The notes under the pieces are model-generated. The model searched no databases, was not told the DNA's origin, and worked only from the letters and a program-made list of their open reading frames with translations. From a virus: a stretch of 13,196 bases of DNA. The position numbers and the translations under genes were made by a program. The DNA is taken from positions 1 through 13,196 of the IMG/VR virus record IMGVR_UViG_3300045988_123862, one strand, 5' to 3'. Below, piece after piece: positions 1 to 13,196 of this stretch. Every line of letters starts with the position of its first letter. The first letter of the stretch is position 1.

Positions 1-59
1 CTAAAGTGCTAAAGCGTAAGCAATGCTTTAGTGTAGTAAAGTGGTAAAGCGGTGAAGCG
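1..59. repeat. Terminal octamer reiterations NTAAAG(T/C)G; candidate replication-origin / TP-polymerase recognition region
   Basis: CTAAAGTG (1-8), CTAAAGCG (9-16), GTAAAGTG (36-43), GTAAAGCG (44-51), GTGAAGCG (52-59). An inverted GCTTTAG (25-31) can pair with CTAAAGC (9-15). Confidence 0.7.
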
Positions 60-120
60 AGTGCAAATAAAAAATAATACCCTTACGCGATAAAGAGCAA
101 AAATATTTAGTTAAATAAGA

Positions 121-149
121 TTAACAAATACATAAAAGAAAAATATAAT
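121..149 (+). promoter_or_regulatory. Sigma-A type promoter, outer one in the left ITR
   Basis: TTAACA (121-126), 17-bp spacer, TATAAT (144-149), with AT-rich sequence upstream. Confidence 0.6.
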
Positions 150-165
150 GTTTACAAATTATTCA

Positions 166-194
166 TTGACAATGGCGGTGTAGTGTGGTATACT
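166..194 (+). promoter_or_regulatory. Sigma-A type promoter, inner one in the left ITR, with extended -10
   Basis: TTGACA (166-171), 17-bp spacer, TATACT (189-194) preceded by TGg (186-188). The predicted start near 200 leaves a leader of roughly 80 nt before ATG 284. Confidence 0.7.
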
Positions 195-252
195 ATATAT
201 AGAGTTAAGGGAGAGGACAAGAAAAGAAACCTTAACAAATAAAATTTTTAAA

Positions 253-268
253 GTTGCAACGTTGCAAC
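253..268. promoter_or_regulatory. 16-bp palindrome GTTGCAACGTTGCAAC, copy 1 (exact), in the left ITR leader
   Basis: Exact 16-mer located between the ITR promoters and the SD. It ends 15 nt before ATG 284. Confidence 0.9.
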
Positions 269-283
269 AGAAAGGAAATTACC

Positions 284-943
284 ATGGAGAACATTATTAA
301 ATCAGAGAGTACAAACATTATGAACACATTCAAGAGCAATGCTCTGAGAGAAAGCACTCAGCGTATCTTTACAAGAATGGTGAATGTTGAGGACAACAAG
401 AAAGCTATCTGTACTGACCTTGCCGAGATATACAACAACGGCACATGGAAAGACGATTTCGGTGACTTTGGCGATTACACCATGACAATGTTTAATATCA
501 CAAAGTCAACAGCAAGCCGTATGAGAAGAGTTTCAGATAAGTTCATAACTGACATTAACTCACTGCTCAATGCTGAAATGTTCACATTCAATCAGCTTGC
601 AGTGCTGGTAACTCTTGACAATGAAGTTATCGAGAACTCAATGATAAACCCAGACATGACAATAAAACAGCTGAGAGAGTTTGTCAACAGCACCAAGGCA
701 CTTGAAATGAAAGACACTGAGGAAGCGGTAGAAAAGGAACTCGAGGAAATAGAAGATGAAGTTGAGGAAACAATAAGGGCTGAAAGTTGCAACGTTGCAA
801 CTAATGAAGAGGAAAATCCGAGAGATTTGGCACATTTTGAAAATCTTAAAGAGCTGTCAATGTGGGTCAATAAGCTTATGGAAAAAAGAGAAAATATCGA
901 AAATATTAACATGTCTTTTGATATTACAACAAAAGCACACTGA
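284..943 (+). CDS. HTH DNA-binding protein; first gene behind the left ITR promoters (candidate regulator)
   Basis: ATG 284 lies 7 nt after SD AAAGGA (271-276). The track start at 254 is a TTG inside the palindrome. FGDYTMTMFNITKSTASRMRRVSDKF reads as a helix-turn-helix of the ParB/DUF3102-like style (recollection, not searched). The C-terminal third is E/D-rich. Confidence 0.7.
   Translation: MENIIKSESTNIMNTFKSNALRESTQRIFTRMVNVEDNKKAICTDLAEIYNNGTWKDDFGDFGDYTMTMFNITKSTASRMRRVSDKFITDINSLLNAEMFTFNQLAVLVTLDNEVIENSMINPDMTIKQLREFVNSTKALEMKDTEEAVEKELEEIEDEVEETIRAESCNVATNEEENPRDLAHFENLKELSMWVNKLMEKRENIENINMSFDITTKAH
786..801. promoter_or_regulatory. 16-bp palindrome, copy 2 (exact), inside the HTH gene
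   Basis: Exact 16-mer encoding ..CNVAT.., 142 nt before the stop of CDS 284..943. Confidence 0.9.
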
Positions 944-962
944 GTATTAATTACTCAGTGTG
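936..962 (+). other. 11-bp stem / 5-nt loop hairpin overlapping the stop of the HTH gene
   Basis: CACACTGAGTA (936-946), TTAAT loop, TACTCAGTGTG (952-962). No U-tract follows, so it is not a canonical intrinsic terminator. Confidence 0.5.
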
Positions 963-984
963 ATAGAAAGAGAGGTGAATAAAA

Positions 985-1191
985 ATGAAAAAACTTTTTA
1001 AATGTGAGCTGTGTGGCAAAATTTATGAAGACGAAATAAAAGCTAAACAGTGTGAAAAAGGGCATGAGTACCCCTCTGAGGTTAAGCCCCTTGCTTACGG
1101 TGAGGGTTCTACATACCCCTATAAGGTTAAAGTAAAGTTTGGTAACTGTGAAGCAGTTTACAGATATGACAGCGGATTGTGGGGAATGTAG
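985..1191 (+). CDS. Small Cys-rich protein (CxxC-x12-CxxxH), function unknown
   Basis: SD AGAGGTG lies 8 nt upstream of ATG 985. The ORF encodes 68 aa, with KCELCGKIYEDEIKAKQCEKGH resembling a zinc-finger or zinc-ribbon knuckle. Confidence 0.6.
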   Translation: MKKLFKCELCGKIYEDEIKAKQCEKGHEYPSEVKPLAYGEGSTYPYKVKVKFGNCEAVYRYDSGLWGM

Positions 1192-1193
1192 CC

Positions 1194-1418
1194 ATGAAAA
1201 AAAGAACAAAAACAACATTAATTTCAGTTGTGATAATTTTAGCATTTGTCTTGTTTAATGTTTTTACCGATTACATTAATTGGAACGGCGGAAAATGCAG
1301 AGAGTGTAATGCACCATGGAAGTTAGTAGCAGTAACTAACAATGGCATTAGATTGTATCATTATGTTTGCCCAAAATGTGGAAAAACTATTGAAATAACA
1401 TGGCACATAGGGGGTTAA
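1194..1418 (+). CDS. Small membrane-anchored Zn-ribbon protein, function unknown
   Basis: ATG 1194 starts 2 nt after the previous stop; the track's GTG at 1179 is less likely. The protein has a basic N-terminus (KKRTK), one TM segment (LISVVIILAFVLFNVF), then CRECN...CPKCG (4-Cys ribbon). Confidence 0.6.
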   Translation: MKKRTKTTLISVVIILAFVLFNVFTDYINWNGGKCRECNAPWKLVAVTNNGIRLYHYVCPKCGKTIEITWHIGG

Positions 1419-1422
1419 GGTT

Positions 1423-1584
1423 ATGAAGATAACAATAAAATCAATCGTAACAATCCTACTAACGATTGTATTTTGTCTACTATCACTAGCAGGAAAGATA
1501 ACGAGTGACCAGTATATGACAGTATTTACAACTGTTATCGCCTTTTATTTTGGCACTCAGTTCTCAAAAAATGGTAAAGTATAA
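1423..1584 (+). CDS. Small 2-TM membrane protein (holin/antiholin-like); below the ORF-track size cutoff
   Basis: My own translation gives MKITIKSIVTILLTIVFCLLSLAGKITSDQYMTVFTTVIAFYFGTQFSKNGKV. GGGGGT lies 7-8 nt upstream. The stop TAA overlaps the next ATG (TAATG), suggesting translational coupling within a lysis cluster. Confidence 0.5.
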   Translation: MKITIKSIVTILLTIVFCLLSLAGKITSDQYMTVFTTVIAFYFGTQFSKNGKV

Positions 1585-1793
1585 TGTGGAGTACGATAAT
1601 AGTTGCGGTGCTATCCTTGATAGGAACATTTATTGGTAGCTATTCGGGGTTCAAGCTGACAGAATATAGGGTACAACAGTTAGAGAACCGAGTGGCAGAA
1701 CACAACAACTTTGCAAGACGGTTACCAGTTGTTGAAGAACAGATAAAGGTAATCAACCATAGATTAACAGATTTGGAGGAAAAAGAAAAATGA
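1584..1793 (+). CDS. Holin-like protein, BhlA/UviB type
   Basis: An N-terminal TM segment (STIIVAVLSLIGTFIGSYSGF) is followed by a charged coiled-coil tail. ATGA overlaps with the endolysin start, directly upstream of the lysin. Confidence 0.6.
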   Translation: MWSTIIVAVLSLIGTFIGSYSGFKLTEYRVQQLENRVAEHNNFARRLPVVEEQIKVINHRLTDLEEKEK

Positions 1794-2458
1794 CATTTAA
1801 GGAATATGTTTCTAAAACCCTTGGCAAGTCGGTTGAGTTTGACGGAGTTTATCCTTACCAGTGTTGCGATTTAGTAAACGACTATATGCAGAAATGTTTT
1901 AACGTTTTTACATATTATCCATACAATTTCAATGCACAGCAGTATTTTACACGTTTCAATGAGGTATCGGCTCTTGTAAAGAATTTTACAAAAATTGCAA
2001 ATACCCCAGAATTTGTACCAATGCAAGGTGATATTTGTATTTTTAAATCGGCTGATAATATCGGGCATATCTCAATAGCCACTGGTGAGGGAGATACAAG
2101 GTATTTTTACAGTTATGACCAGAACTGGAACGGACACAACTTTGTCGCAAAAGAACGGCATACCTATACTAATTTCTTAGGTGTTCTGAGATATAAAGGC
2201 AATGCCCTTGATACTACAGGTTTAAAACGTGGAGATAATAATGTAGGTGTTTACGCATACAAAATGATGTTAAAACTTGCAAAAACTTGTAAAATAATTA
2301 GTACAAGTGTTGATTTTAACGGCATATACGGCAAGGGTACTGAAAAGGCTACAAACGAGATTTTGCGGAAGCTGAAAAAGAAAGAAAATGGAATAGCAGG
2401 GGTAAAGCTAATCAACGCACTTTATGAAGCTATTCTTGACAAAGTAGTTAATTTTTAA
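1790..2458 (+). CDS. Endolysin: N-terminal CHAP peptidase/amidase plus C-terminal putative peptidoglycan-binding domain
   Basis: CHAP-type catalytic context is present: PYQCCDLVNDY (Cys) and IGHISIA (His). The C-terminal 70 aa (GVYAYKMMLKLA...NGIYGKGTEKATNEILRKL) resembles PG_binding_1. Confidence 0.85.
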   Translation: MTFKEYVSKTLGKSVEFDGVYPYQCCDLVNDYMQKCFNVFTYYPYNFNAQQYFTRFNEVSALVKNFTKIANTPEFVPMQGDICIFKSADNIGHISIATGEGDTRYFYSYDQNWNGHNFVAKERHTYTNFLGVLRYKGNALDTTGLKRGDNNVGVYAYKMMLKLAKTCKIISTSVDFNGIYGKGTEKATNEILRKLKKKENGIAGVKLINALYEAILDKVVNF

Positions 2459-2505
2459 CAGATAATACGTTATGTGAGCATTTAACAATACAACAGCAAA
2501 TTGAT

Positions 2506-2548
2506 AATAATTAACATTTATAAAAATAATTAACATTTATAAAAATAA
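2506..2548. repeat. Tandem direct repeat, 19-bp unit AATAATTAACATTTATAAA x 2.3
   Basis: Exact copies occupy 2506-2524 and 2525-2543, with a partial copy at 2544-2548. It lies in the 188-nt non-coding gap between the lysin and SSB genes. Confidence 0.9.
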
Positions 2549-2646
2549 GAGTGCTAAACCGTTATTGTTATCTAACGTACATAACTATTATATATTACGG
2601 TCACACAATATTGAACAAATTACAAAACATGAAAGAGGTTTTAAAC

Positions 2647-2985
2647 ATGAGTGGATTTAACGTAAACATGACAAAAAAGGACATATTTAACGCAAAAAGT
2701 GGAAGCATTTCAATCAAGACAGCAGAAGCGGCAGAGTGGCACACTGTATCGGGCTGTGCAGTGGTAGAAAATGGTGGACTTGACAGAGATAAGAAGCCAT
2801 GTGATATTGGCTATATTGCTACTGATATCGGGGTGTTTGGGTTCTCGTCAAAGGTCTGCCTAGACCATATGGAAGAGTTGGCAGATATTCTCAGCGACTG
2901 CCTTAACGACGGTGAAGAAGTAAAGGTAAGATTTGTAAAGGGTAAATCAACCAACGGCGAGTTCTATTCAATTCAGATACAGTAA
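2647..2985 (+). CDS. Single-stranded DNA-binding protein, phi29 p5-like
   Basis: SD AAAGAGG lies 8 nt before ATG 2647; the track start at 2551 has no SD. IFNAKSGS and the C-terminal VKVRFVKGKSTNGEFYSIQIQ match my recollection of phi29 p5 (IFNAQTGG ... KVKVVQGTSSKGNVFFSLQL). The size of 112 aa is similar. Confidence 0.6.
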   Translation: MSGFNVNMTKKDIFNAKSGSISIKTAEAAEWHTVSGCAVVENGGLDRDKKPCDIGYIATDIGVFGFSSKVCLDHMEELADILSDCLNDGEEVKVRFVKGKSTNGEFYSIQIQ

Positions 2986-3000
2986 ATAACAAATCGGCAG

Positions 3001-3027
3001 AACGTGGCAATAAAAAGTTGCCACGTT
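3001..3027. other. 10-bp stem hairpin built from a degenerate half copy plus the first part of palindrome copy 3
   Basis: AACGTGGCAA (3001-3010), loop TAAAAAG, TTGCCACGTT (3018-3027). Confidence 0.6.
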
Positions 3028-3032
3028 GCAAC
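3017..3032. promoter_or_regulatory. 16-bp palindrome, copy 3 (1 mismatch: GTTGCcACGTTGCAAC), upstream of the connector gene
   Basis: Preceded by AAAAA. It ends 21 nt before TTG 3054. Confidence 0.85.
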
Positions 3033-3053
3033 CGATTGAAAGGGGTGAAAAAA

Positions 3054-4010
3054 TTGGGTTCAAAAATAAAGCCGTGGAGTTGGAGTGAGTTCGGGGTATC
3101 AAACATTGATAAATCACAATTAACAAGCTACTATTACAAAATGCTGTTAAATCGTGTTATTAATATGTTTACATGGGAAAATCTACCTGATACAATTGAT
3201 GAGCAAGTGATGAATTTTTGGCTATTTGTTACTGGAAGAGTTGTTTTCACTGAGTTTAATGGAAAACTATATGCACTAAATGGTAATTACGGTGGTTATC
3301 CTAACGAATACTATTTACCTACTGAATTTGTTGTAGCTAATCCGATTTTAGGAAATAAAATCGTAAAGTTAGATATTGACGGAGTTGCAATGTTTAACAG
3401 TGATACGGATAAATACCCTACACAAGGGCTAGTGGGTGGTTTATATCCTATATTGACGCTAACAGCAAATATGTTGGCTGATTGCGTAACAACAATTTCC
3501 AGTGCATTGAAAAACGGCAGAGTTCAAACAGCGTTTATATGTAAAGATGATACAGTGCGAATTGCAGGGGAAAAAGTTCTAAAACAGTTATACAACGGTA
3601 ATCCAGCCGTTATGATTGATGATACAATACTAAATTGTATTTCGCCAATCAAAATGGCAGATAATACAAGTGTTGCTACAATCCTACAACAGACAGTTGA
3701 AACGTACCAATTTTGGTTGGCTAATTTTTACAATTCTATCGGTGTAAACGCAAATTTCAACATGAAACGAGAACGGCTAAACACGGCTGAGGTTAATATT
3801 AACGATAGTGCATTATTTGTAAATGTTGTTAATATGCTAAATAACCGTCAGCAGGCAGTCGATAAAATTAACGCTATGTTTGGGGTAGACATTTCTGTAA
3901 AAATTTCTGAAGAGTGGAAGGATTTAGTAAAAACTGAGGAAGAGCCTACCGAGGAAAATCCAACAGAGGAAGAGGGAAACGACAATGCGAAAGATGATAA
4001 CGCTGAATGA
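3054..4010 (+). CDS. Head-tail connector / upper collar (portal), phi29 gp10-like
   Basis: TTG 3054 lies 7 nt after GGGGTG. MFTWENLPDTID matches phi29 gp10 LFEWENLPPTIN, and NMKRERLNTAEV matches KKERMVTDEV. The C-terminal tail is acidic. Confidence 0.9.
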   Translation: MGSKIKPWSWSEFGVSNIDKSQLTSYYYKMLLNRVINMFTWENLPDTIDEQVMNFWLFVTGRVVFTEFNGKLYALNGNYGGYPNEYYLPTEFVVANPILGNKIVKLDIDGVAMFNSDTDKYPTQGLVGGLYPILTLTANMLADCVTTISSALKNGRVQTAFICKDDTVRIAGEKVLKQLYNGNPAVMIDDTILNCISPIKMADNTSVATILQQTVETYQFWLANFYNSIGVNANFNMKRERLNTAEVNINDSALFVNVVNMLNNRQQAVDKINAMFGVDISVKISEEWKDLVKTEEEPTEENPTEEEGNDNAKDDNAE

Positions 4011-4656
4011 ATGGGCTGAAAAATTCCCTGCTATAAGTACTATTTTTGACAAGGTATCAGCAGACTTGAAGCTATTTACAGTTTTCACGTCCTCTGAAAT
4101 GTTCTCTTATTTTATAAACAAGTTCGGCGAACGTGATTTTTATAAGTATTATGATAATGCAACAAGTAATGCCAATATGGTAAAACAGGCAAGCGACTAT
4201 ATAGCATTATATGGTAAATCTCACAAGTATGAGTATGACAAGCTAGTCGATACCCTATCACTGGAATACAACCCCATTGAGAACTATTCCATGACAGAAA
4301 AAGGAACAGATACACGAACACCAAATATCACGCAAACCAATAAGGGAACAAATACCAATACCGCAGGAGTTGACACTGCAATCACAACAGGCAAAACTAC
4401 ATTTGATAAATCAGATAGTTTTATCAATGATACAAAAACTACCAATACAGGAACTAACACCGATACGCAGGATATAGACACTACAGTAACAACAGCAGGA
4501 AATGAAAAAACCGAGCATGAACTTACAAGAAGTGGCAATATCGGAGTTACCACGTCACAACAGATGATTGAAAGTGAACGTAAATTGGCAATGTTTTCTG
4601 TAGTCGATTTGTTCGTTAAGGCAATAGCTGATATTATTCTAATCGGAGTATATTAA
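3985..4656 (+). CDS. Lower collar protein, phi29 gp11-like
   Basis: It lies immediately after the connector with a 26-nt overlap and an upstream SD GAGGAAGAGGGA. The central region is T/N-rich and beta-prone. The C-terminal SGNIGVTTSQQMIESE motif is typical of lower-collar proteins as I recall them. Confidence 0.6.
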   Translation: MRKMITLNEWAEKFPAISTIFDKVSADLKLFTVFTSSEMFSYFINKFGERDFYKYYDNATSNANMVKQASDYIALYGKSHKYEYDKLVDTLSLEYNPIENYSMTEKGTDTRTPNITQTNKGTNTNTAGVDTAITTGKTTFDKSDSFINDTKTTNTGTNTDTQDIDTTVTTAGNEKTEHELTRSGNIGVTTSQQMIESERKLAMFSVVDLFVKAIADIILIGVY

Positions 4657-4660
4657 AAAA

Positions 4661-4676
4661 GTTGCAACGTTGCAAC
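4661..4676. promoter_or_regulatory. 16-bp palindrome, copy 4 (exact), upstream of the small-ORF/MCP module
   Basis: Preceded by AAAAAA (4655-4660). It ends 16 nt before ATG 4693. Confidence 0.9.
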
Positions 4677-4692
4677 TAGAAAAGAGGAGAAA

Positions 4693-4980
4693 ATGCAAAA
4701 AGTGAGAAGTCCTACATATGCTGAAAATTATGTCAATCTTGCAAGAGCGGTTGTATTAAAAGTAGTAGTAGATACGCTCCAAAATAAGGAAGATTTAAAA
4801 GACTATATTTTATATAGTGATGATTTTGTGTTTTGGTTATGCCTTGCAGATTGGTTAAAATATGAAAATGTTATTAAAGATAAGTTTTCATGTTTTAAAG
4901 GGATTGACAATACGCTAAGAAAGAAACTAAATAACTATTATCGCTTAAAAGGCGAAGAAATAAAGAGAGGTAAATTATAA
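4693..4980 (+). CDS. Hypothetical protein (95 aa) in the position phi29 uses for scaffold gp7
   Basis: SD AAGAGGAG is followed by ATG 4693, and TAATG couples it to the MCP gene. I recognise no sequence similarity to gp7; the scaffold idea rests on position and size only. Confidence 0.55.
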   Translation: MQKVRSPTYAENYVNLARAVVLKVVVDTLQNKEDLKDYILYSDDFVFWLCLADWLKYENVIKDKFSCFKGIDNTLRKKLNNYYRLKGEEIKRGKL

Positions 4981-6119
4981 TGAAAGTTACACAAATTGCC
5001 ACAATTTTGAATGAAGCACAGCAGGAGATAATCGGAGAAGCCGCAATAACAACGGAAAATCTTGAAAACGTTGTTGATATGGGCAAGCAGATTTTGGAAG
5101 CTACAGACGTTGACAACTATGTTCGCAAGCTGATTGACAAAGTTGGCAGAATGATTTTTGTAGACAGGGTTTACAACTCAACAGCTCCTGATATTTTGAC
5201 GGATAGTTGGGAGTATGGCTCTGCAATGCAAAAAGTCCGCTGTGAAATGCCTGACGCAGTTGAGAATGACAGTTGGAAATTGACAAACGGTCAGAGTTAT
5301 GACCCATTCGTTTTTACAGCCCCCGACGTTCAATCAAAATTTTATGACAGTAAGGTGACATATGAAGTGCAGATGTCATTCACAGAAATGCAGGTCAAGA
5401 GTGCATTTAATTCACCGGCTGAAATGAATAGCTTTTTTGCTATGATTGAAAACAGAATACGTTTTAAGCTCACTTTGTCAAATGATATACTTAAAACACG
5501 AACTGTTAATAATCTCATAGCAGAAAAGATACACAGCAATAACAATGTTGTTAATCTTTTGACAATGTATAACACAGAGTTTACCCAGACCCTGAAAGCA
5601 GATCATGCTCTTATGGATAAAGACTTTTTGAGATATGCAATTGGCAAAATCAAGGAGTATATTAAGTACATTCAGCGTCCGTCAATGATGTTCAATGACG
5701 GCGGTTACACAACTTTTACTCCTGAAAGTGACATGAAAATGGTGCTTTTGTCAAGATTTGTAAATACTGCTGAGGTATACCTACAGAGTGACACATTCCA
5801 TAATGACCTTGTGAAACTGACTGGTTACTCAGAAGTGCCATATTGGCAGGGTAGCGGAACAGGTGAAACTTTTGATTTTGCGGAAATTTCAAAAATCGAT
5901 GTTACAACTGCAAGCGGTAACGCAGTATCTCAGACAGGTATTATCGGAACTATTTTTGACCGTGACGCGTGTATGGTATGCAATGCTAATCCGAGAGTAA
6001 CTAGCATTTACAATCCAAAGGGCGAATACTGGAACTATTTTTACAAGTATGACGCTAGCTATTTCAATGATACAATGGAAAATTGTGTTGTATTTATAGT
6101 AGCAGACGCAAAAAAGTAA
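4980..6119 (+). CDS. Major capsid protein, phi29 gp8-like
   Basis: IYNPKGEYWNYFYKY matches phi29 gp8 VRNPRGLYWNYYYHV. The N-terminal region also resembles gp8 (DKVGRMIF versus DRIGLVVI). Size and position fit. Confidence 0.88.
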   Translation: MKVTQIATILNEAQQEIIGEAAITTENLENVVDMGKQILEATDVDNYVRKLIDKVGRMIFVDRVYNSTAPDILTDSWEYGSAMQKVRCEMPDAVENDSWKLTNGQSYDPFVFTAPDVQSKFYDSKVTYEVQMSFTEMQVKSAFNSPAEMNSFFAMIENRIRFKLTLSNDILKTRTVNNLIAEKIHSNNNVVNLLTMYNTEFTQTLKADHALMDKDFLRYAIGKIKEYIKYIQRPSMMFNDGGYTTFTPESDMKMVLLSRFVNTAEVYLQSDTFHNDLVKLTGYSEVPYWQGSGTGETFDFAEISKIDVTTASGNAVSQTGIIGTIFDRDACMVCNANPRVTSIYNPKGEYWNYFYKYDASYFNDTMENCVVFIVADAKK

Positions 6120-6142
6120 CAGTATAACAAAATGATAGTTAA

Positions 6143-6172
6143 AACGTTGCAACCCTAAAAAGTTGCAACGTT
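6143..6172. other. 11-bp stem hairpin built from an extra half copy plus the first part of palindrome copy 5
   Basis: AACGTTGCAAC (6143-6153), loop CCTAAAAA, GTTGCAACGTT (6162-6172). Confidence 0.6.
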
Positions 6173-6177
6173 GCAAC
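6162..6177. promoter_or_regulatory. 16-bp palindrome, copy 5 (exact), upstream of the tail module
   Basis: Preceded by AAAAA. An extra AACGTTGCAAC half copy lies at 6143-6153. The motif ends 20 nt before ATG 6198. Confidence 0.9.
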
Positions 6178-6197
6178 TATATAGAGAGGGTGAAAAA

Positions 6198-6698
6198 ATG
6201 CCTATAATTACAAGTTATCAATGTTCGCAGGACATACGAACAATTTCAAAAACACTAACAAACGCAGTAGAATATAATTGTGAAATACTGGATATTATGA
6301 ACAGTTTCACACCCCATATAAGATTATTTTGCACATCTGAAACTTTTAATGCCAATATGGTGTATATACCATTTTTTGATAGATATTATCATATAATTTC
6401 GACGGAAATTGAAAGTGCAGAAACTATTATTTTACAATGTGAATTTGATATATTTACATATTCAGTAGCACTATTATCTAGCGAATTTTTAGTTACTAGA
6501 AATGAAAATATTGGAAGTACATATATCCCCGATACAATGTTACCATTAAAAGGTAATAAGGAAATGAAAGTAATTGAATTTACTGGGGGAGATTTTAATC
6601 TTGACAGTGCCACGGTAAATAGTTACAATTTTGTGCTAAATGTGGCAGGTGGTGGAAGTAATCAAGGAACGGCAGAAAATGGGGGTTTAAACATATGA
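6198..6698 (+). CDS. Hypothetical virion-module protein (166 aa)
   Basis: SD GAGAGGGTG lies 6 nt before ATG 6198; the track start at 6171 is a TTG inside the palindrome. ATGA couples it to the tail-knob gene. I recognise no motif. Confidence 0.6.
   Translation: MPIITSYQCSQDIRTISKTLTNAVEYNCEILDIMNSFTPHIRLFCTSETFNANMVYIPFFDRYYHIISTEIESAETIILQCEFDIFTYSVALLSSEFLVTRNENIGSTYIPDTMLPLKGNKEMKVIEFTGGDFNLDSATVNSYNFVLNVAGGGSNQGTAENGGLNI
6601..6629 (+). promoter_or_regulatory. Candidate internal sigma-A promoter ahead of the tail-knob gene
   Basis: TTGACA (6601-6606), 17-bp spacer, TACAAT (6624-6629), about 66 nt upstream of ATG 6695. It lies inside CDS 6198..6698, and in AT-rich DNA it could be a chance match. 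Confidence 0.35.
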
Positions 6699-8782
6699 AG
6701 TTAAATAAAGAAATTTATTCCAGTGACCGCAGTATATCCATAGATTTTTTAAGTGGCATTAAAACAACTCAGTCATTAGAAACTTTGGTTAATAATGGTA
6801 AATTACAACTAAACAGCCCCATTGATGAATCAATTTTTTATGCGGTTGATTTTAACCCCCCTGATGATTATTTTGTCCGCAGTGGGTATAGGAAACCAAA
6901 TCAATCGGAATTTGTAACTGGTACAAATACCCCTAGCGGTGTATGTGCTATGTTTGGACGTTTAAACACTAGAGACACATTACAAAATAGACCTGTATAC
7001 GCTAACCAGTTAACAACAACATATTATAGACTAGCATATGACAGTAATAGTAGTAGTAGGTTAGGATATTATTTCGGCACTGAGTATAAATTAAAAGATT
7101 TTCTCTTTTTGATACGAGTGATAGCTTACAAATTTGAATATTCTGAAATGGGTGACGTATCATCATTTAGCGATAGAATTGATGTTGACGTTATCACATT
7201 TGAACAAAATTACAAAAATAGTCACCACATTGTCGGTATGTATGCAGCACCGTATTATTTTAGGGCTGACCTTAATGACCGCAAATTGTGCCAAGGTTTT
7301 AATATTATCCCATTTTGTACATATTCAAAAAATTCTATGGTGGATAATTATGACGTTTACGGTGCATTATTTTTTGGCGATTATGACCAAGATCACGCAA
7401 TTTTGAATAATTTCATTTATGGGTGTGATGATTTGAATACTAACTATTTTAATAGATATGATTACTATTATGCAAATTTAGGCTATAACGATTTGTGGGA
7501 TAAAACATATTTTGCAATTAATAGTAGTGTATATACTGGATATTTGCCAGTTTTTGACTACAGTATTGAAAACATTCATAAATTATATAGCAGAATGGGA
7601 ACATATTATACATTCTCTAAAAATTTAGCCGAGCAGGAAAATTTAAACCAAAATGGTATATATTGCGGTATTATATCAGATGACGGAAAAATTACAGGGA
7701 AATATTCTGAGGGTGCAGAAAATGCAAAACAAATTCAAACAACGTGGGATACCCCTACAGATTGGCAGGATAATCCATTTAATGGTATCAGTAATACAGA
7801 CTCGAATAACTACACTGACAAAATAGATTTAAATAAACCCACACTATCAAATGTGAACGTTTTCAATCGTAGTTTTGCAGTTAATGCAAATACTGTAAAA
7901 AATTTGGCTGATTTTTTGTGGAACGCAGATGAAACGAAATTTCAAGAAATTGTAAAAGGTTTAGCGTTAATGGGTGAAAATCCTATGAATGGAATTATTG
8001 GCTTGCTTTTATTTCCATTTAATGTAGCATTGAAAAATTCTGCTACAGGGGCAGAAAATATCGTTATTGGCAGAACTGATACAGGGGTATCAGGTATCAA
8101 ATTAACAGAAAAAGTAAACAGTTTAATTGATTTAGGTGAATGTACATTTTTTACTAAATTCAAAAATTTCCTAGACTATGAACCATACACAACAGCACAA
8201 TTATATATACCATATATTGGTGTTGTACCAGTTTCAACGGCTGAATTTATGGGGCATAGAATATCGGTTAAAATGATAGTTGACTATACCACAGGTGCAG
8301 GAACTGCCATAGTATTTAAAGACGATATACCTTTTATTTACAGAAATGGTGTAGTAGGTATATCAATTCCAATGACTGGAAACGATAGTGCTAGTTATGC
8401 TAGTACAGTTATTGGAAATGTAGTCGGTGGTGCTGTTGGTGGTGTATCGTCAATCGCTAGCGGAAATGTTGGCGGTATGGTTAGCAGTGCAGAAAAATTA
8501 TACAGTGGCTTTGCAACTGGTACTAATTACCAAGAGGCTAGTGCAAGTTCTCCGTCGGTTGCAACGTGGCAACCGCAACGATGTTATTTTATAATTGACC
8601 GTCCTATTTTAAATGTACCTGATAATTATGGGCGGACGATTGGTTTTGCGTGTGAAAAAACTGGTAAACTATCAGATTTTAAAGGTTTTACAGTTGTTAG
8701 CAATCCTGAAATTAATTTCAGATGTACGGACAGTGAAAGGCAGTATATAGTAAATATGTTACAAGGCGGTGTATTTGTATGA
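6695..8782 (+). CDS. Tail knob / distal tail tube protein, phi29 gp9-like
   Basis: It is the largest structural ORF (695 aa) in the tail position. The C-terminal half has YIPYIGVVPV...ISVKMIVDYTTGAGTAIV and a long Gly/Val/Ser hydrophobic loop (GNVVGGAVGGVSSIASGNVGGMVSSA), like the membrane-active loop described for phi29 gp9. Confidence 0.6.
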   Translation: MKLNKEIYSSDRSISIDFLSGIKTTQSLETLVNNGKLQLNSPIDESIFYAVDFNPPDDYFVRSGYRKPNQSEFVTGTNTPSGVCAMFGRLNTRDTLQNRPVYANQLTTTYYRLAYDSNSSSRLGYYFGTEYKLKDFLFLIRVIAYKFEYSEMGDVSSFSDRIDVDVITFEQNYKNSHHIVGMYAAPYYFRADLNDRKLCQGFNIIPFCTYSKNSMVDNYDVYGALFFGDYDQDHAILNNFIYGCDDLNTNYFNRYDYYYANLGYNDLWDKTYFAINSSVYTGYLPVFDYSIENIHKLYSRMGTYYTFSKNLAEQENLNQNGIYCGIISDDGKITGKYSEGAENAKQIQTTWDTPTDWQDNPFNGISNTDSNNYTDKIDLNKPTLSNVNVFNRSFAVNANTVKNLADFLWNADETKFQEIVKGLALMGENPMNGIIGLLLFPFNVALKNSATGAENIVIGRTDTGVSGIKLTEKVNSLIDLGECTFFTKFKNFLDYEPYTTAQLYIPYIGVVPVSTAEFMGHRISVKMIVDYTTGAGTAIVFKDDIPFIYRNGVVGISIPMTGNDSASYASTVIGNVVGGAVGGVSSIASGNVGGMVSSAEKLYSGFATGTNYQEASASSPSVATWQPQRCYFIIDRPILNVPDNYGRTIGFACEKTGKLSDFKGFTVVSNPEINFRCTDSERQYIVNMLQGGVFV
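8558..8573. promoter_or_regulatory. 16-bp palindrome, copy 6 (1 mismatch: GTTGCAACGTgGCAAC), inside the tail-knob gene
   Basis: Encodes ..VATWQP.. and lies 221 nt upstream of the next gene start (8779). The flanking CG..CG extends the dyad. Confidence 0.8.
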
Positions 8783-9330
8783 TGAATGAACATTTTGCAA
8801 GCGGTTTAACAAATGAGCAGTTAAAGGCAGAAATTTTAAGGCAAGGACGTAAAGCAAATTTACGTCTTAGCCAATTGAAAAAAACTGGAATGTATAGTAA
8901 AAATCCTATAATTTCTAGTAAATGGAATACTTTTTTGCATGAAAACAAATTTGCTACAAAAAAGAACTTTTTCAAAACTGGTTCAAAGGGTGAAACGAGA
9001 GCAGAAATGTTAAAACACTATGTGCAGATTAGACAGTTTCTAGGGCAGAAAACAACAGTAAAAGAAACGAGAGCTATTATGTCAAAACACGCAAAACGTT
9101 TAAATATTTCTGAGGAAAATGTTGACAGAGTTTTATCAATTTTCGGCAATAGCGGAATAAGTGCAGAATTACCGAATAGTGATTTTGTACAGCAATTTAT
9201 TGCTGAAATGGTTGAAAATGGGTTTAATGATAATGAAATAAATTCATTATTGAACACCCTTGAAAGTTCGGCACAAACACAAAGTGAAATGTACGATTTA
9301 ATGCGTGAACAACTTCAAATGTTGGAATAG
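8779..9330 (+). CDS. Terminal protein candidate (183 aa)
   Basis: It lies directly upstream of the protein-primed polymerase, as gene 3 precedes gene 2 in phi29. The basic N-terminal KAEILRQGRKANLRLSQLKKTG and GETRAEMLKHYVQIRQF loosely resemble phi29 TP KAEYARLVKNTKAKIARTKKKYG and ETRAQFNKWKEQASSF (recollection). Confidence 0.45.
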   Translation: MMNEHFASGLTNEQLKAEILRQGRKANLRLSQLKKTGMYSKNPIISSKWNTFLHENKFATKKNFFKTGSKGETRAEMLKHYVQIRQFLGQKTTVKETRAIMSKHAKRLNISEENVDRVLSIFGNSGISAELPNSDFVQQFIAEMVENGFNDNEINSLLNTLESSAQTQSEMYDLMREQLQMLE

Positions 9331-9345
9331 TTGCAACGTTGCAAC
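9330..9345. promoter_or_regulatory. 16-bp palindrome, copy 7 (exact), between the TP candidate and the polymerase
   Basis: Overlaps the last base of stop TAG 9328-9330. Flanks extend it to the 22-bp palindrome ATAGTTGCAACGTTGCAACTAT (9327-9348). It ends 23 nt before TTG 9369. Confidence 0.9.
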
Positions 9346-9368
9346 TATTCTTTAAAGGGGTGTAATAG

Positions 9369-11507
9369 TTGATAAATGTAAATGATTTTGATTTTGATAT
9401 TCTAAAAAATAGTAATTTACAAACTGTTACAACTAGAAATCGCGATAATCAATATATAGAATATTATAACGCACCTTTTGCATTTGATATTGAAACTAGT
9501 TCATTTTATGACGGTGAAAATAAACGTGCGTGTATGTATATTTTTATGTTTGCATTAAATGGTAATTATGTATACGGTAGGACATGGGAAGATTTTGATT
9601 TTACATTGAATAAGTTAAGAGAAGTATTACAATTAAATGAATACAGAAGAATTATAATATATATTCATAATTTAGGATATGAGTTTCAGTTTCTAATCGG
9701 TCATGAACGGTTCAAAGATGTTTTTGCTAGAAATGCACGTCACCCTATTAAATGTACTATGAATGATTGTTTTGACCTGAAATGTAGTTTAATGCTAAGT
9801 GGTATGAGCCTAGCAAAGACGGCCGAGGACTTGACAAGCGTAAAAATACAAAAATTAACAGGTGACCTCGATTATAAACTTTTACGAACATGGAAGACAC
9901 CTTTAACAAAAGAAGAATTTGGATATTGTGAACATGATGTTAAAATATTACATTATTTTATACTTGAAGAAATGGCAAAAAATGATAATGATATAACAAA
10001 AATACCATTAACTAAAACAGGATATGTAAGAAAATATTGCCAAAACTACATTAAGAAACATACATATTATCCAAAATATAGAGAAAAAATTAAGAAGATA
10101 GCCCCAGTTAATAAAGACTTGTTTTGCCTATTACACAAAAGTTTCATGGGTGGGTATACTCATGCTAACTATATGTATGTGGGAATGGTATTAGAAAATG
10201 TTGCCAGTATTGACTTTACAAGTTCTTATCCGTCCGTTATGATTAGAAAGAAGTATCCAATGCAACCATTTACAAAAGTTCACATAAAAAATTTAACAGA
10301 TTTTAGATATTGTATTAAAAATTATCCATGTGCTTTTGAAGTGGAATTAACTAACGTTGTTGCTAAAAAATGTAATCATATTTTATCACGTTCAAAATGT
10401 TCCGTTTGTGATAATGCAATAGTTGATAATGGGCGAATTGTATCGGCAGATAGAATATTTACATATTTTACAGATATTGACTTTAAAGATTTTGAAGAAT
10501 TTTATTCTTATGAGCATTTATCAATTGGTAAATTTTACACGTCAAGTTATGGATATTTACCAAAACAAATTATTGAATGTGCGTTAAAATTTTACAACGA
10601 TAAGACCACGTTGAAAGGTGTTGCAGGAAAAGAAGTTGAGTATTTAGTCGGTAAAGGTATGCTGAATAGTTTGTTTGGAATGTGCGTGACAAACCCAGTA
10701 AACGATGATATTGTTTTTGACGGAAAAGAATGGAATACGGAGAAGAAAGATATTTCAGAAGCATTACAAGAAAATTACATAAAGAACAAAAAACAGGTAT
10801 TAGTATATCAGTGGGGAGTGTGGATTACTGCATGGGCTAGGCACGAACTTTTCAAGGGTATATTAGAAATTAATGAAGATGTTATTTATTGTGATACAGA
10901 TAGTATAAAATTTTTAAACTATGAAAATTATGAAAACTGGATAAATGAATATAACAAAAATTGTATTAACGAGATTAACAAAGCGTTGACATACTATGAA
11001 ATTGATTTGAATTTAGCAAAACCTAAAACAATTAAAGGCATTAAAAAGCCCCTAGGTGTATGGGATTTTGAGGGAATTTATAAAAAATTTAAAACACTAG
11101 GTGCTAAAAGATATGCTTATGAAGAAAATGAAAAATTTAATATTACAGTGTCAGGATTAAATAAAAAACGTGCTGTGCCGTATATAGTTGCAACGTTGCA
11201 ACCGTTTGAATTTTTTGACAATGAAATGTATATCCCGAAAGAGTATACAGGTAAAAATACATTAACATATATTAACGAACCATACAAAATTATGGTAAAA
11301 GACTACCAAGGAAATTATGCAGAAGTGGAAGAAAATACCTATATCCATATGGAGGAGCAGGACTATAATATGTCATTATCTGAACAATTCATACATTATT
11401 TAATGTGTGGCACAAATTTTGGTAGCGGAGCAAAAGAGCATACATTATTTGAAAAAAGCCAAGAATTGGCTACAAATTTCTGGGAGTGTGATTACAATGA
11501 AAAATGA
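9369..11507 (+). CDS. Protein-primed family-B DNA polymerase, phi29 gp2-like
   Basis: TTG 9369 lies 6 nt after GGGGTG. Motifs present: ExoI FDIETS, ExoII HNLGYEFQF, ExoIII YCEHDVKIL, motif A DFTSSYPSVM, motif B KGMLNSLFGM, motif C YCDTDSIKF, and KxY LGAKRYAY. Confidence 0.95.
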   Translation: MINVNDFDFDILKNSNLQTVTTRNRDNQYIEYYNAPFAFDIETSSFYDGENKRACMYIFMFALNGNYVYGRTWEDFDFTLNKLREVLQLNEYRRIIIYIHNLGYEFQFLIGHERFKDVFARNARHPIKCTMNDCFDLKCSLMLSGMSLAKTAEDLTSVKIQKLTGDLDYKLLRTWKTPLTKEEFGYCEHDVKILHYFILEEMAKNDNDITKIPLTKTGYVRKYCQNYIKKHTYYPKYREKIKKIAPVNKDLFCLLHKSFMGGYTHANYMYVGMVLENVASIDFTSSYPSVMIRKKYPMQPFTKVHIKNLTDFRYCIKNYPCAFEVELTNVVAKKCNHILSRSKCSVCDNAIVDNGRIVSADRIFTYFTDIDFKDFEEFYSYEHLSIGKFYTSSYGYLPKQIIECALKFYNDKTTLKGVAGKEVEYLVGKGMLNSLFGMCVTNPVNDDIVFDGKEWNTEKKDISEALQENYIKNKKQVLVYQWGVWITAWARHELFKGILEINEDVIYCDTDSIKFLNYENYENWINEYNKNCINEINKALTYYEIDLNLAKPKTIKGIKKPLGVWDFEGIYKKFKTLGAKRYAYEENEKFNITVSGLNKKRAVPYIVATLQPFEFFDNEMYIPKEYTGKNTLTYINEPYKIMVKDYQGNYAEVEENTYIHMEEQDYNMSLSEQFIHYLMCGTNFGSGAKEHTLFEKSQELATNFWECDYNEK
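11187..11202. promoter_or_regulatory. 16-bp palindrome, copy 8 (exact), inside the DNA polymerase gene
   Basis: Encodes ..VATLQP.. and lies 310 nt upstream of the ATPase start (11497). Confidence 0.9.
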
Positions 11508-12588
11508 ATACTATTCATTAAAAAAGATTAATAAGTTAAATGCCCTATACAATTTGATTATAGGGCAGAGGTCAAACGGAAAAACATACTCAGTGTGCAA
11601 ACAGGAAATAGAAGGCTACTTCAAAGAAAATTTTCGACTTGCATACATAAGAAGATACGATGAGGAAATAATGCCTAAGAATATACAGAATTTGTTTAAA
11701 CCACATTCAGCACTAATTGAAAAATTATCTAATGGTCAGTTTAACAGCACCACATATAAAAATAGGGAATTTTATTTATATAATAAAGATACTGAGGAAA
11801 AAAGCGAACAAAGTTTTTGCAAGTGTTTTTCGCTGAACGCCTGGGAGCGTACAAAAGGTGCAGACAATGGATATTTTAAATATATACTATTTGATGAATT
11901 TATGACACGTTCTTTTTACCTTAATAATGAATTTGTTACATTTACTCAATTACTATCATCTATCATTCGTGACAGGGATAACACAATTATTTATATGATA
12001 GCAAATACTGTCAATCAATACTGCCCTTACTTTGCCGAAATGGGCTTGGGTAAAATTTCAGATATTAAACAGGGTGACTTGAAATTATTTACATATGGTG
12101 ATAGTGAATTAACTCTCGCTTTGGAATATTCAGATAGTAGGGGTCAGACTGGAAAAGTTAGTAAATATTTTGCTTTTGATAATCCACAATTGAAAATGAT
12201 TACCACAGGGCAGTGGGAAATTAAAAATTACCCCCACGCACCGTTTAAAATCAAAAAGGAAAATATTGTATATAGGGCATATATATTCTTTGACAATGAT
12301 GTTATTGCTTGCAATATTATTCATTATGAAAATACTGTATTTCTATTTTTTAATATTCAGACAAAGACGGAAAACCTCGAATTAAAAAAGAGGGTTGTAT
12401 ACAGTTTTGAAACTGATACAAACCCCCTGCACGTCCAATCACTGGCAGAACAGCCAACAGACGTACATAAACTTATTAATAATTTAATAACATTTAATCG
12501 TGTATTCTATGCAGATAATTCAGTAGGTGAAATTGTTAGAAACTGGATAAATGCACAAAGCAAGCACTCTATAAGTTTAAGAACATAA
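11497..12588 (+). CDS. DNA packaging (encapsidation) ATPase, phi29 gp16-like
   Basis: ATG 11497 overlaps the polymerase stop by 11 nt. LYNLIIGQRSNGKTYS matches gp16 ILNFVIGARGIGKSYA (Walker A), LAYIRRY matches FIYVRRY, and ILFDEF matches IVFDEF (Walker B). Confidence 0.9.
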   Translation: MKNEYYSLKKINKLNALYNLIIGQRSNGKTYSVCKQEIEGYFKENFRLAYIRRYDEEIMPKNIQNLFKPHSALIEKLSNGQFNSTTYKNREFYLYNKDTEEKSEQSFCKCFSLNAWERTKGADNGYFKYILFDEFMTRSFYLNNEFVTFTQLLSSIIRDRDNTIIYMIANTVNQYCPYFAEMGLGKISDIKQGDLKLFTYGDSELTLALEYSDSRGQTGKVSKYFAFDNPQLKMITTGQWEIKNYPHAPFKIKKENIVYRAYIFFDNDVIACNIIHYENTVFLFFNIQTKTENLELKKRVVYSFETDTNPLHVQSLAEQPTDVHKLINNLITFNRVFYADNSVGEIVRNWINAQSKHSISLRT

Positions 12589-12592
12589 AAAT

Positions 12593-12627
12593 AACCCCAC
12601 GAAATTAATCGTGGGGTTTGTTTTTTG
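12593..12627. terminator. Bidirectional rho-independent terminator between the convergent genes
   Basis: AACCCCACGA (12593-12602), loop AATTAA, TCGTGGGGTT (12609-12618), then TTTGTTTTTTG. On the minus strand the hairpin is followed by ATTTTTAT. Confidence 0.85.
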
Positions 12628-12912
12628 TTATATCACATAATCTCTTAACACTGCCTGAATGTTTGTCATTGTAGGTTTTACATATTCCTCATCATAAACG
12701 TCACACAATAAATCACTTATGTTTTCATATCTGAGATAACCGTTAGGGGTTTTTTCCTGATTTTCCCAGAACCACTCAACAGAAGCACACGCAACCGTAT
12801 TTGTTATAGTGTCAAATATAATCATTACAATTGGTCCATGTGATTTAGTTGCACTATTATATCTACCTACTGCCTTTTTAATTCCTTTAACCTCTGTACC
12901 ATTAATTTTCAT
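12628..12912 (-). CDS. Hypothetical 94-aa protein; the only minus-strand gene, driven by the right ITR promoters
   Basis: ATG 12912 lies 8 nt after the ITR-borne SD AAAGGA. The ORF ends at the bidirectional terminator. I recognise no motif; the C-terminal half is acidic. Confidence 0.75.
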   Translation of the reverse strand: MKINGTEVKGIKKAVGRYNSATKSHGPIVMIIFDTITNTVACASVEWFWENQEKTPNGYLRYENISDLLCDVYDEEYVKPTMTNIQAVLRDYVI

Positions 12913-12928
12913 TTCAATCGTCCTTTCT

Positions 12929-12944
12929 GTTGCAACGTTGCAAC
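12929..12944. promoter_or_regulatory. 16-bp palindrome, copy 9 (exact), in the right ITR leader
   Basis: Mirror of copy 1. It lies 16 nt from the ATG (12912) of the minus-strand gene. Confidence 0.9.
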
Positions 12945-13002
12945 TTTAAAAATTTTATTTGTTAAGGTTTCTTTTCTTGTCCTCTCCCTTAACTCTATAT
13001 AT

Positions 13003-13031
13003 AGTATACCACACTACACCGCCATTGTCAA
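13003..13031 (-). promoter_or_regulatory. Sigma-A type promoter, inner one in the right ITR (mirror of 166-194)
   Basis: Reverse complement reads TTGACA-17-TGgTATACT and faces inward. Confidence 0.7.
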
Positions 13032-13047
13032 TGAATAATTTGTAAAC

Positions 13048-13076
13048 ATTATATTTTTCTTTTATGTATTTGTTAA
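13048..13076 (-). promoter_or_regulatory. Sigma-A type promoter, outer one in the right ITR (mirror of 121-149)
   Basis: Reverse complement reads TTAACA-17-TATAAT and faces inward toward CDS 12912..12628. Confidence 0.6.
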
Positions 13077-13137
13077 TCTTATTTAACTAAATATTTTTGC
13101 TCTTTATCGCGTAAGGGTATTATTTTTTATTTGCACT

Positions 13138-13196
13138 CGCTTCACCGCTTTACCACTTTACTACACTAAAGCATTGCTTACGCTTTAGCACTTTAG
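13138..13196. repeat. Mirror copy of the terminal octamer reiterations at the right end
   Basis: Reverse complement of 1-59, as part of the ITR. Confidence 0.7.

Follow-up and report, generated by a model that had tools for sequence, protein, structure and literature searches.

What reads the 16-bp palindrome GTTGCAACGTTGCAAC that recurs along a 13-kb phage genome, and what might it be read for? The genome in question is the IMG/VR virus record IMGVR_UViG_3300045988_123862 (positions 1 to 13,196), and the whole stretch of 13,196 bases, referred to below as the window, represents a complete small phi29-like podophage genome. The initial annotation had named the first gene (gene 1) as the only clear helix-turn-helix (HTH) protein of the genome and as the candidate reader of the palindrome, which by binding the copies in its leader and in its 3' part would repress its own synthesis and gate transcription into the small-protein and lysis block downstream. 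We found both copies to be exact matches, and a comparison with ~150 related phage genomes suggests that gene 1 is probably the reader of GTTGCAACGTTGCAAC. The initial interpretation gained support in its core, an HTH protein at the terminal repeat as the putative reader of the palindrome, and the picture is wider than the proposed local autoregulatory switch: there are ten sites, three of them intragenic, a second early gene carries an identical leader copy, and sister phages have the host site parS at like positions.

The ten sites were identified in the window with at most two mismatches (Table 1). Shuffled sequences gave an expectation of 0.07 sites, and none of 200 shuffles reached ten. 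The motif GTTGCAACGTTGCAAC consists of the 8-bp palindrome GTTGCAAC repeated in tandem and is therefore also a perfect palindrome over its 16 bp. Seven of the ten sites are located within the ~7% of the genome that is non-coding, and the other three are intragenic. Five sites lie 15–23 nt before a start codon, directly 5' of the ribosome-binding site; the genes concerned are gene 1, the connector gene, the open reading frame (ORF) at 4693, the DNA polymerase gene, and the ORF that follows the capsid gene. A sixth start-codon-proximal site is the terminal-repeat copy ahead of the right-end ORF. Sites are spaced by 0.5–2.4 kb over the whole genome, and each belongs either to one of the two early leaders or to the long unit that runs rightward.

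The sites are syntenic in 19 related genomes, whose gene-1 proteins share 79–98% identity with that of the window. In these genomes, the columns of the 16-mer are 94–100% identical, compared to 70–88% in the 60-nt flanks (for the site at 11187, 99% versus 88%). Wobble positions at the three intragenic sites are variable outside the motif and fixed inside it; the site at 786, for example, encodes SCNVAT, a fixed island within a linker that otherwise varies in length and sequence. The leader copy is kept in those loci of the window family that reach this end, and it is exact in most of them (one mismatch in L004). The A6-to-C change of the site at 3017 is kept in nearly all relatives, with L004 showing GTTGCCGC instead. 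This variant, GTTGCCACGTTGCAAC, and the one at 8558, GTTGCAACGTGGCAAC, are reverse complements of each other and are maintained in essentially the whole family. As DNA, they thus represent one site that is flipped, while as RNA, the same pair is broken in both without compensation. The comparison of aligned sequences indicates that the 16-mer sites are selected as DNA words. In the L020 lineage, the C/G change is present on both half-sites.

Two other functions considered for the 16-mer were rejected. A fixed part of a sigma-70 promoter does not fit, as the spacing to −10-like hexamers varies from site to site and the gap between site and start codon is too short for a −10 element plus a transcription start. 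An antisense terminator does not fit either, with a T run on the minus strand at just two sites (3017 and 4661). The site at 9330 forms the centre of a 26-bp perfect palindrome (9325–9350, GAATAGTTGCAACGTTGCAACTATTC). The ~45 nt that follow the site at 11187 (11203–11245, ccgtttgaattttttgacaatgaaatgtatatcc) show no wobble variation across 18 genomes. They hold TTGAAT-17-TATATC plus a TTGACA and may represent a promoter internal to the unit, or some other element, ahead of the packaging ATPase gene.

At the sequence level, gene 1 belongs to a family with little annotation. Pfam (at E up to 0.1), NCBIfam, and PADLOC gave no match, and this includes PF11300 (DUF3102), for which gene 1 remained below threshold at the same E-value. 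The only profile match was to phrog_15077 (3e-11), a family of unknown function, while a homologue in NCBI nr with 89% identity carries the name DUF3102. The exhaustive profile search recovered 241 cluster representatives of the gene-1 family; among the 150 matches listed, most are 190–260 aa long, and PF11300 was weakly matched by three of 61 family representatives (E up to 1.9e-4). No match to the gene-1 protein was obtained in 50,697 deposited phage records or in 185,579 species representative genomes. None of these searches assigned gene 1 to a family whose role is unrelated and whose preferred site differs. A functional study of DUF3102 (PF11300) was not found in the searched literature, and a 2024 review of phi29-like phages mentions neither ParB nor HTH nor DUF3102 (PMC11476376).

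The N-terminus MENIIKSES is common to all homologues compared, and the family shares an architecture of a long helix, a conserved HTH block, and two more conserved helices, of which the HTH is the most conserved block. We built an AlphaFold (AF2) model of gene 1 on the family alignment (pLDDT 80.7), in which one long helix (residues 19–52) precedes the HTH. Foldseek searches of the PDB with this model returned ParB, Spo0J, Noc, SopB, and VirB as 18 of the 30 top matches; the best ones, which include 4umk, 7ng0, 6t1f, and 7ol9, are DNA-binding domains of Spo0J in complex with parS, of Noc, of Caulobacter and Myxococcus ParB, and of SopB and VirB. Among viral proteins, the best matches were podovirus proteins of unknown function and DUF3102 proteins (E 4e-3 to 2e-2 for the latter). 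A sigma-factor-like role of gene 1 was rejected, as the fold is ParB-like and not sigma-like. The ParB DNA-binding fold reads 16-bp palindromes. The N-terminal CTPase domain of ParB (ParB/Srx, PF02195, with its arginine-rich box) was not found in gene 1, either by Pfam at E up to 0.1 or in the model, and ParA/CbiA-type families matched no ORF of the window. Because the CTPase domain, ParA, and sequence homology are missing, gene 1 is not a strict member of the ParB family but an HTH protein with a ParB DNA-binding fold; judged from the model, it belongs to the ParB superfamily by its HTH and at the fold level only. The claim of a single clear HTH protein is qualified accordingly: HTH families in Pfam, PHROGs, or NCBIfam matched none of the window's ORFs, the HTH of gene 1 itself is visible at the fold level only, and gene 1 is the protein for which a model was made.

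In order to ask whether palindrome and protein change together, we inspected distant homologues of gene 1. These are first or second from an end of small phi29-like genomes, which carry repeated palindromes of their own. The L020 lineage (gene 1 with 40% identity) has GTTGCC-N4-GGCAAC in the gene-1 and connector leaders, and L021 (26% identity) has six copies of TTACAATCGATTGTAA. Among the genomes identified by a gene-1 family match, L024 (= L059) contains six copies of TCCGTT-N2-AACGGA, which is also found in L075, while L025 and L026 (= L082 and L050) contain five copies each of TCTAGT-N2-ACTAGA; L107 has GTTCGG-N4-CCGAAC. The gene-1 leader position holds the lineage's own palindrome in L020, L021, L059, L075, L074, and L107, and in most lineages the ribosome-binding site of the homologue is immediately preceded by a copy. 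In L050, the palindrome overlaps the −35 element of the early promoter, and in L074, two copies flank the promoter. The recognition helix differs where the palindromes differ and is similar where the palindrome is shared: KSTASRMRRV in the window, KSVASRMRNV in L020, and KQAQAYNLKRV in L021, with GTTGCA, GTTGCC, and TTACAATC as the respective half-sites.

This link was quantified in two surveys. The first comprised 80 IMG/VR genomes selected by capsid homology, independently of gene 1, plus three cultured phages. A private palindrome with at least four perfect copies was found in 9 of 11 gene-1-positive lineages versus 2 of ~42 gene-1-negative genomes (nominal Fisher p = 6e-7); the two gene-1-positive exceptions, L091 and L098, have AT-rich or half-site versions of the palindrome. 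The second survey covered the 51 contigs of at least 10 kb out of 72 further contigs from the genome collection. As computed, 12 gene-1-positive contigs had a palindrome and 5 had none, compared to 2 and 31 among the gene-1-negative contigs (nominal p = 3.6e-6), where L175 was positive solely via a run of N and the corrected first row reads 12 and 6. Of the window's accessory genes, gene 1 alone is common to the other palindrome-bearing lineages. Both gene 1 and a repeated palindrome are absent from the cultured relatives astrithr, Phanie, and AD70P2. The proposal that the HTH protein is the reader of the 16-mer thus gains independent support from the modelled ParB-type fold and from the co-variation with the palindrome; it is further supported by the leader copy in most lineages and by gene 1 appearing as the sole accessory gene that tracks the palindromes.

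Palindromes in gene-1-negative genomes include TGATTGTTAACAATCA (12 copies) and TCCGTT-N2-AACGGA (10 copies). In addition, a second palindrome, TTGTGCAAnTTGCACAA, was observed in the terminal regions of L020 (75–91) and of L098 (77–91, 154–168, and 11184–11198); it is distinct from the palindrome at the gene junctions of L020.

A further line of evidence comes from sister phages. The canonical bacterial parS, TGTTTCACGTGAAACA, was present with at most one mismatch in ~25 of ~65 distinct genomes (IMG/VR and cultured set). In the first set, parS-bearing genomes typically have two to five copies and are mostly devoid of gene 1; the second set added further cases with up to seven or eight copies. 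Carriers include L051, L053, L054, L058, L062, L065, L066, L068, L070, L071, L076, L144, L171, and L173. Like the window motif, these sites are found in the leaders of terminal repeats and just 5' of ribosome-binding sites, as exemplified by TGTTTCACGTGAAACAtagaaaggaataataaaATG ahead of the ATPase gene of L054; copies also occur beside terminators. In L069, canonical parS is located in the leader of the gene-1 homologue itself. The window contains no parS-like site within two mismatches. Since an exact 16/16 parS is hardly anything but a site for a ParB-type protein, the class of element used in this clade is a DNA site. It appears that the window family has swapped host ParB and parS for its own ParB-fold reader and a private site. 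In L025 (6554–6719) and L026 (6383–6506), three to four parS-like copies (15/16) were observed within a tandem coding repeat (...PDPDDVSRET...), spaced by 36–78 nt in L025 and by 54 nt in L026, as in a centromere-like intragenic cluster; both genomes have gene 1 and their own TCTAGT-N2-ACTAGA sites besides this cluster.

Based on these results, we propose the following scheme. Gene 1 would be an early DNA-binding protein with a ParB-type HTH core that is distantly related to DUF3102 and lacks the CTPase domain, and its dimer would read GTTGCAACGTTGCAAC as two 8-bp half-sites. Both early units are predicted to start in the terminal repeats, with one site ~50 bp after the start and before the ribosome-binding site. 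With sites at about +50 in both early units, the accumulating protein should occupy its own leader as well as that of the right-end gene. A bound leader site would block elongating RNA polymerase and lower the synthesis of gene 1. The remaining sites in the rightward unit might act as roadblock-type, stoperator-like operators, whose occupancy would throttle or silence read-through into late and replication genes. For a phage that lacks an integrase, such a scheme would be suited to temporal control or to a silent carrier state. Activation from the sites is unlikely because there is no room for a promoter before the start codon and because the −10 geometry is inconsistent. The sites with their conservation, the modelled fold, and the co-occurrence and co-variation with gene 1 are observed, and from these we infer binding, dimerization, and the direction and size of the effect on transcription, and with them the self-repression and the gating of the lysis block by gene 1. 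Taken as a whole explanation, a gene-1 DNA-binding protein that exerts roadblock-type control from the 16-mers stands at about even chances in our judgement, and that transcription control is its main role is a tentative assignment that falls somewhat short of even.

Several observations weigh against this scheme. A strong roadblock at +50 of the sole strong rightward promoter would shut off all late genes, the promoter scan of the window revealed no internal promoter that consistently adjoins the 16-mer sites, and no regulatory target is obvious for the three intragenic sites, conserved as they are. The Foldseek statistics against the PDB are weak (best E 0.05, TM 0.32–0.39 over ~100–117 columns; probability 0.99), and PDB sequence searches gave no sequence-level link between gene 1 and ParB but chance matches and designed coiled coils on the long N-terminal helix. 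Under the strict criterion, 6–8 gene-1-positive genomes lack a clear palindrome, while L055, L101, L129 (whose sequence is partial), and L166 have a private palindrome and no gene 1. L055, L101, and L166 may carry an unrelated or very divergent reader; the small early proteins of L054 and L055 matched no recognizable DNA-binding family, and the gene-1 profile did not match at E up to 50. Finally, the combined Fisher p of ~1e-11 for both surveys, like the separate p-values, overstates the evidence because the surveyed genomes are related and are not independent samples.

The same binder and the same sites could have a different main role, namely a ParB-like one in marking, organizing, anchoring, or segregating the genome or in excluding host factors, in the setting of a carrier state or of spore entrapment, and any effect on transcription would then be a side effect. 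We consider this possible but doubtful as the main role, at something over one chance in four, although a ParB-like maintenance or silencing role in general is about as plausible as classical operator control. It would agree with the fold, which is that of the ParB/Noc DNA-binding domain, with the canonical parS of sister phages at positions like those of the window motif and mostly without gene 1, and with phi29, where five parS sites and host Spo0J serve prespore entry (PMC2731898). The even spread of sites over the genome, three of ten being intragenic, points the same way. Against it, gene 1 lacks a CTPase or spreading domain, a ParA partner, and a recognizable ParB C-terminal domain, and partition would not require the strong preference for positions immediately 5' of ribosome-binding sites. 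The related phage contigs in the genome collection are free-standing and stem nearly all from metagenome bins, with two isolate assemblies; free-standing contigs neither show nor exclude episomal carriage.

Two other explanations do without gene 1 as a reader. If the palindrome acted as an RNA hairpin before ribosome-binding sites, it could serve as a 5' stabilizer, a processing signal, or a translational operator within a long polycistronic transcript. On the sense strand, six of the ten sites indeed precede a start codon by 15–23 nt, the predicted hairpin has a 6-bp stem and an ACGU loop (−7.1 kcal/mol), and gene 1 ends in another, clearly structural hairpin whose stem shows compensatory changes. 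However, copies within the genome are identical in sequence and not just in structure, the 3017 and 8558 variants break the same pair without compensation in essentially all relatives, and drift at the 786 site yields mismatches instead of compensatory pairs. Moreover, intragenic copies are equally conserved, sister phages hold the exact host parS 16-mer, a DNA site, at the same position, and the asymmetric centre of the L024 palindrome has the same orientation beside genes on opposite strands. As Rfam gave no match either, we regard an RNA hairpin as unlikely. Less probable still, with a chance slightly below one in ten, is that a host protein (a regulator or a Noc-like protein) binds the palindrome or that the palindrome is a short boundary for the exchange of gene modules between related phages. 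The use of host-protein sites in this clade is illustrated by canonical parS, the sites are found at borders between functional modules, and the four genomes with private palindromes have no detectable gene 1. Yet the window itself has no parS-like site within two mismatches, the palindrome changes along with gene 1 between closely organized relatives (window versus L020), and the statistical link to gene 1 is strong. In addition, 16 bases are short for homologous exchange, which would also leave the intragenic copies unexplained.

The proposed system of gene 1 and its sites shares features with several known ones. Like ParB/Spo0J-parS and Noc-NBS, it would combine an HTH DNA-binding fold with a 16-bp perfect palindrome, which has the central ACGT of parS and is present in several copies. 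It differs in that gene 1 lacks the N-terminal CTPase domain (ParB/Srx), a ParA partner, and sequence-level similarity, in that the half-site is GTTGCAAC in the window and TGTTTCAC in parS, and in that its sites are distributed over a lytic-type phage genome of 13 kb, immediately ahead of ribosome-binding sites. KorB of RK2/RP4 is a ParB-family HTH protein with about a dozen copies of the palindromic OB site on a small replicon, and it acts as a global transcriptional repressor that also controls its own operon. The ParB-type fold, the type of palindrome, and the many copies on a small replicon are thus alike, while KorB has a CTPase domain, works with KorA and IncC, and has OB sites positioned relative to promoters instead of immediately ahead of ribosome-binding sites. 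The stoperators of L5 gp71 are likewise many identical short sites in short intergenic gaps and genes of long operons and are thought to stop elongating polymerase. In contrast to the window sites, they are asymmetric and oriented with transcription, and L5 is a temperate phage; the asymmetric variants at 3017 and 8558 are opposite in orientation on the same transcribed strand. The window system is therefore not of the L5 type, given its symmetric sites and the absence of an integrase.

Phi29, too, is a small protein-primed podophage with several ParB-type palindromes on its genome. It has five parS sites and uses host Spo0J for entry of its genome into the prespore, and these sites have been linked to an alternative non-lytic fate without integration (PMC2731898). 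In the window, by comparison, the site is private, the ParB-like reader appears to be phage-encoded, as judged from sequence and model, and canonical parS is absent. Dyad-symmetric repeats in phages without integrase are also known from Cluster O mycobacteriophages, whose 17-bp repeats, TGTTCGGNNNCCGAACA, occur in more than 30 copies, one third of them in genes (PMC4351075). Neither L5 nor Cluster O has an assigned ParB-fold reader.

If gene 1 acts as proposed, its family gains a testable role as the reader of a specific palindrome, and the lineages with differing sites and recognition helices offer a natural specificity series for the retargeting of a ParB-type HTH. Some of the smallest tailed phages may possess a genome-wide layer of control or maintenance, either of their own or borrowed from host ParB, which bears on the persistence of integrase-less, lytic-looking phages in gut and sewage communities. 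The comparison brings to light a clade-wide pattern of ParB-type sites in these phages and provides a candidate explanation for unexplained dyad repeats elsewhere, for example those of mycobacteriophage Cluster O. A more speculative and, in our view, rather unlikely generalization is that miniature phi29-like phages carry an interchangeable "ParB-site module" at terminal-repeat leaders and gene junctions, which would either borrow host ParB via parS or employ the phage's own CTPase-less reader with a private, diversifying specificity, and which would switch between lytic expression and a silent, segregated, non-integrated state. If true, this module would give a function to the DUF3102 fold and would explain the persistence of integrase-less phages of 11–13 kb.

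Table 1. Coordinates of gene 1, the 16-mer sites, and associated features in the window (SD, Shine-Dalgarno sequence).
Feature	Position	Strand	Details
Left terminal repeat	1-276		both early promoters, leader, one 16-mer, SD
Tandem sigma-70-type promoter matches	121-194	+	consensus matches only
16-mer, gene-1 leader	253-268		exact; 15 nt before ATG, directly 5' of SD
Gene 1	284-943	+	ATG 284, stop 943; 219 aa; AAAGGA ahead
Predicted HTH of gene 1	467-547	+	residues ~62-88, DYTMTMFNITKSTASRMRRVSDKF; helices 62-70 and 74-88
Disordered acidic linker of gene 1, with internal 16-mer	734-820	+	residues 151-179; pLDDT <50
16-mer, gene-1 3' part	786-801		exact; 97% identity in 19 genomes vs 70% for 60-nt flanks
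Stem-loop over gene-1 stop codon	936-962	+	-17.6 kcal/mol in the window
Variant 16-mer GTTGCCACGTTGCAAC	3017-3032		just ahead of connector-gene SD
16-mer	4661-4676		16 nt ahead of ATG of ORF 4693-4980
Degenerate site	6138-6153		before ORF starting ~6198, downstream of capsid gene
16-mer	6162-6177		exact; before the same ORF
Variant 16-mer GTTGCAACGTGGCAAC	8558-8573		inside ORF 6695-8782; 99% identity vs 86% in flanks, including wobble positions
16-mer	9330-9345		23 nt before DNA polymerase start
16-mer	11187-11202		inside DNA polymerase gene, ~300 nt upstream of packaging ATPase gene
Right-end early gene	12628-12912	-	94 aa; reverse-strand sequence and translation
16-mer, right-end gene leader	12929-12944		terminal-repeat copy

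The remaining features of the genome fit a phi29-like phage. Pfam recognized a connector and a major capsid protein of phi29 type, a packaging ATPase of gp16 type, a protein-primed DNA polymerase of family B, and a CHAP lysin. The lysin, together with the gut or sewage origin, points to a host among the Bacillota (Firmicutes). No ORF of the window matched an integrase family in Pfam or the other family libraries scanned, which agrees with the initial annotation, and no Pfam or PHROG match to the phi29 p4 and p6 families was obtained for gene 1 or any small ORF. Rfam gave no match at E up to 1 across the whole window; a phi29-type packaging RNA was thus not detected at this cutoff despite the phi29-type connector and the gp16-type ATPase. 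Whole-window DNA had no match among the 50,697 deposited phage records. Judged by the capsid protein, Astrithrvirus-like phages come closest among cultured relatives, with 41–46% identity (Acinetobacter phage Phanie; Salmonella phages Astrid and astrithr), followed by Amedibacillus phages with 31% identity.

The inverted terminal repeats (276 bp; the right one at 12921–13196) are 100% complementary. The window's four top-scoring promoter-like matches are located in these repeats, two in each, which places gene 1 first behind the strongest promoters, as had been annotated. At the left end, these are TTAACA-17-TATAAT (121–149) and TTGACA-17-TATACT with an upstream TG (166–194); the pair scores 11/12 positions and is mirrored at the right end. 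Since promoter, leader, 16-mer, and SD all lie within the terminal repeat, the right-end gene has exactly those of gene 1, and the two genes should be co-regulated. This right-end gene is the sole exception to the rightward direction of all genes; its product gave no match in the family-library scans, and its homologues were not found outside the close family.

The stem-loop over the stop codon of gene 1 is conserved in every relative, with folding energies between −15 and −20 kcal/mol, and its stem has undergone compensatory changes in L017, L018, and L020. In the terminator scan, it appeared solely as a terminator-like site on the minus strand, and because there is no U tract on the plus strand, it does not qualify as a standard terminator. 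It might act as an attenuator, or stabilize RNA ends, between gene 1 and the small-protein/lysis block. A GC-rich hairpin of 10 bp (12593–12618), flanked by T runs on either strand, is found between the leftward gene and the ATPase gene and is likely a bidirectional terminator that separates the two convergent units.

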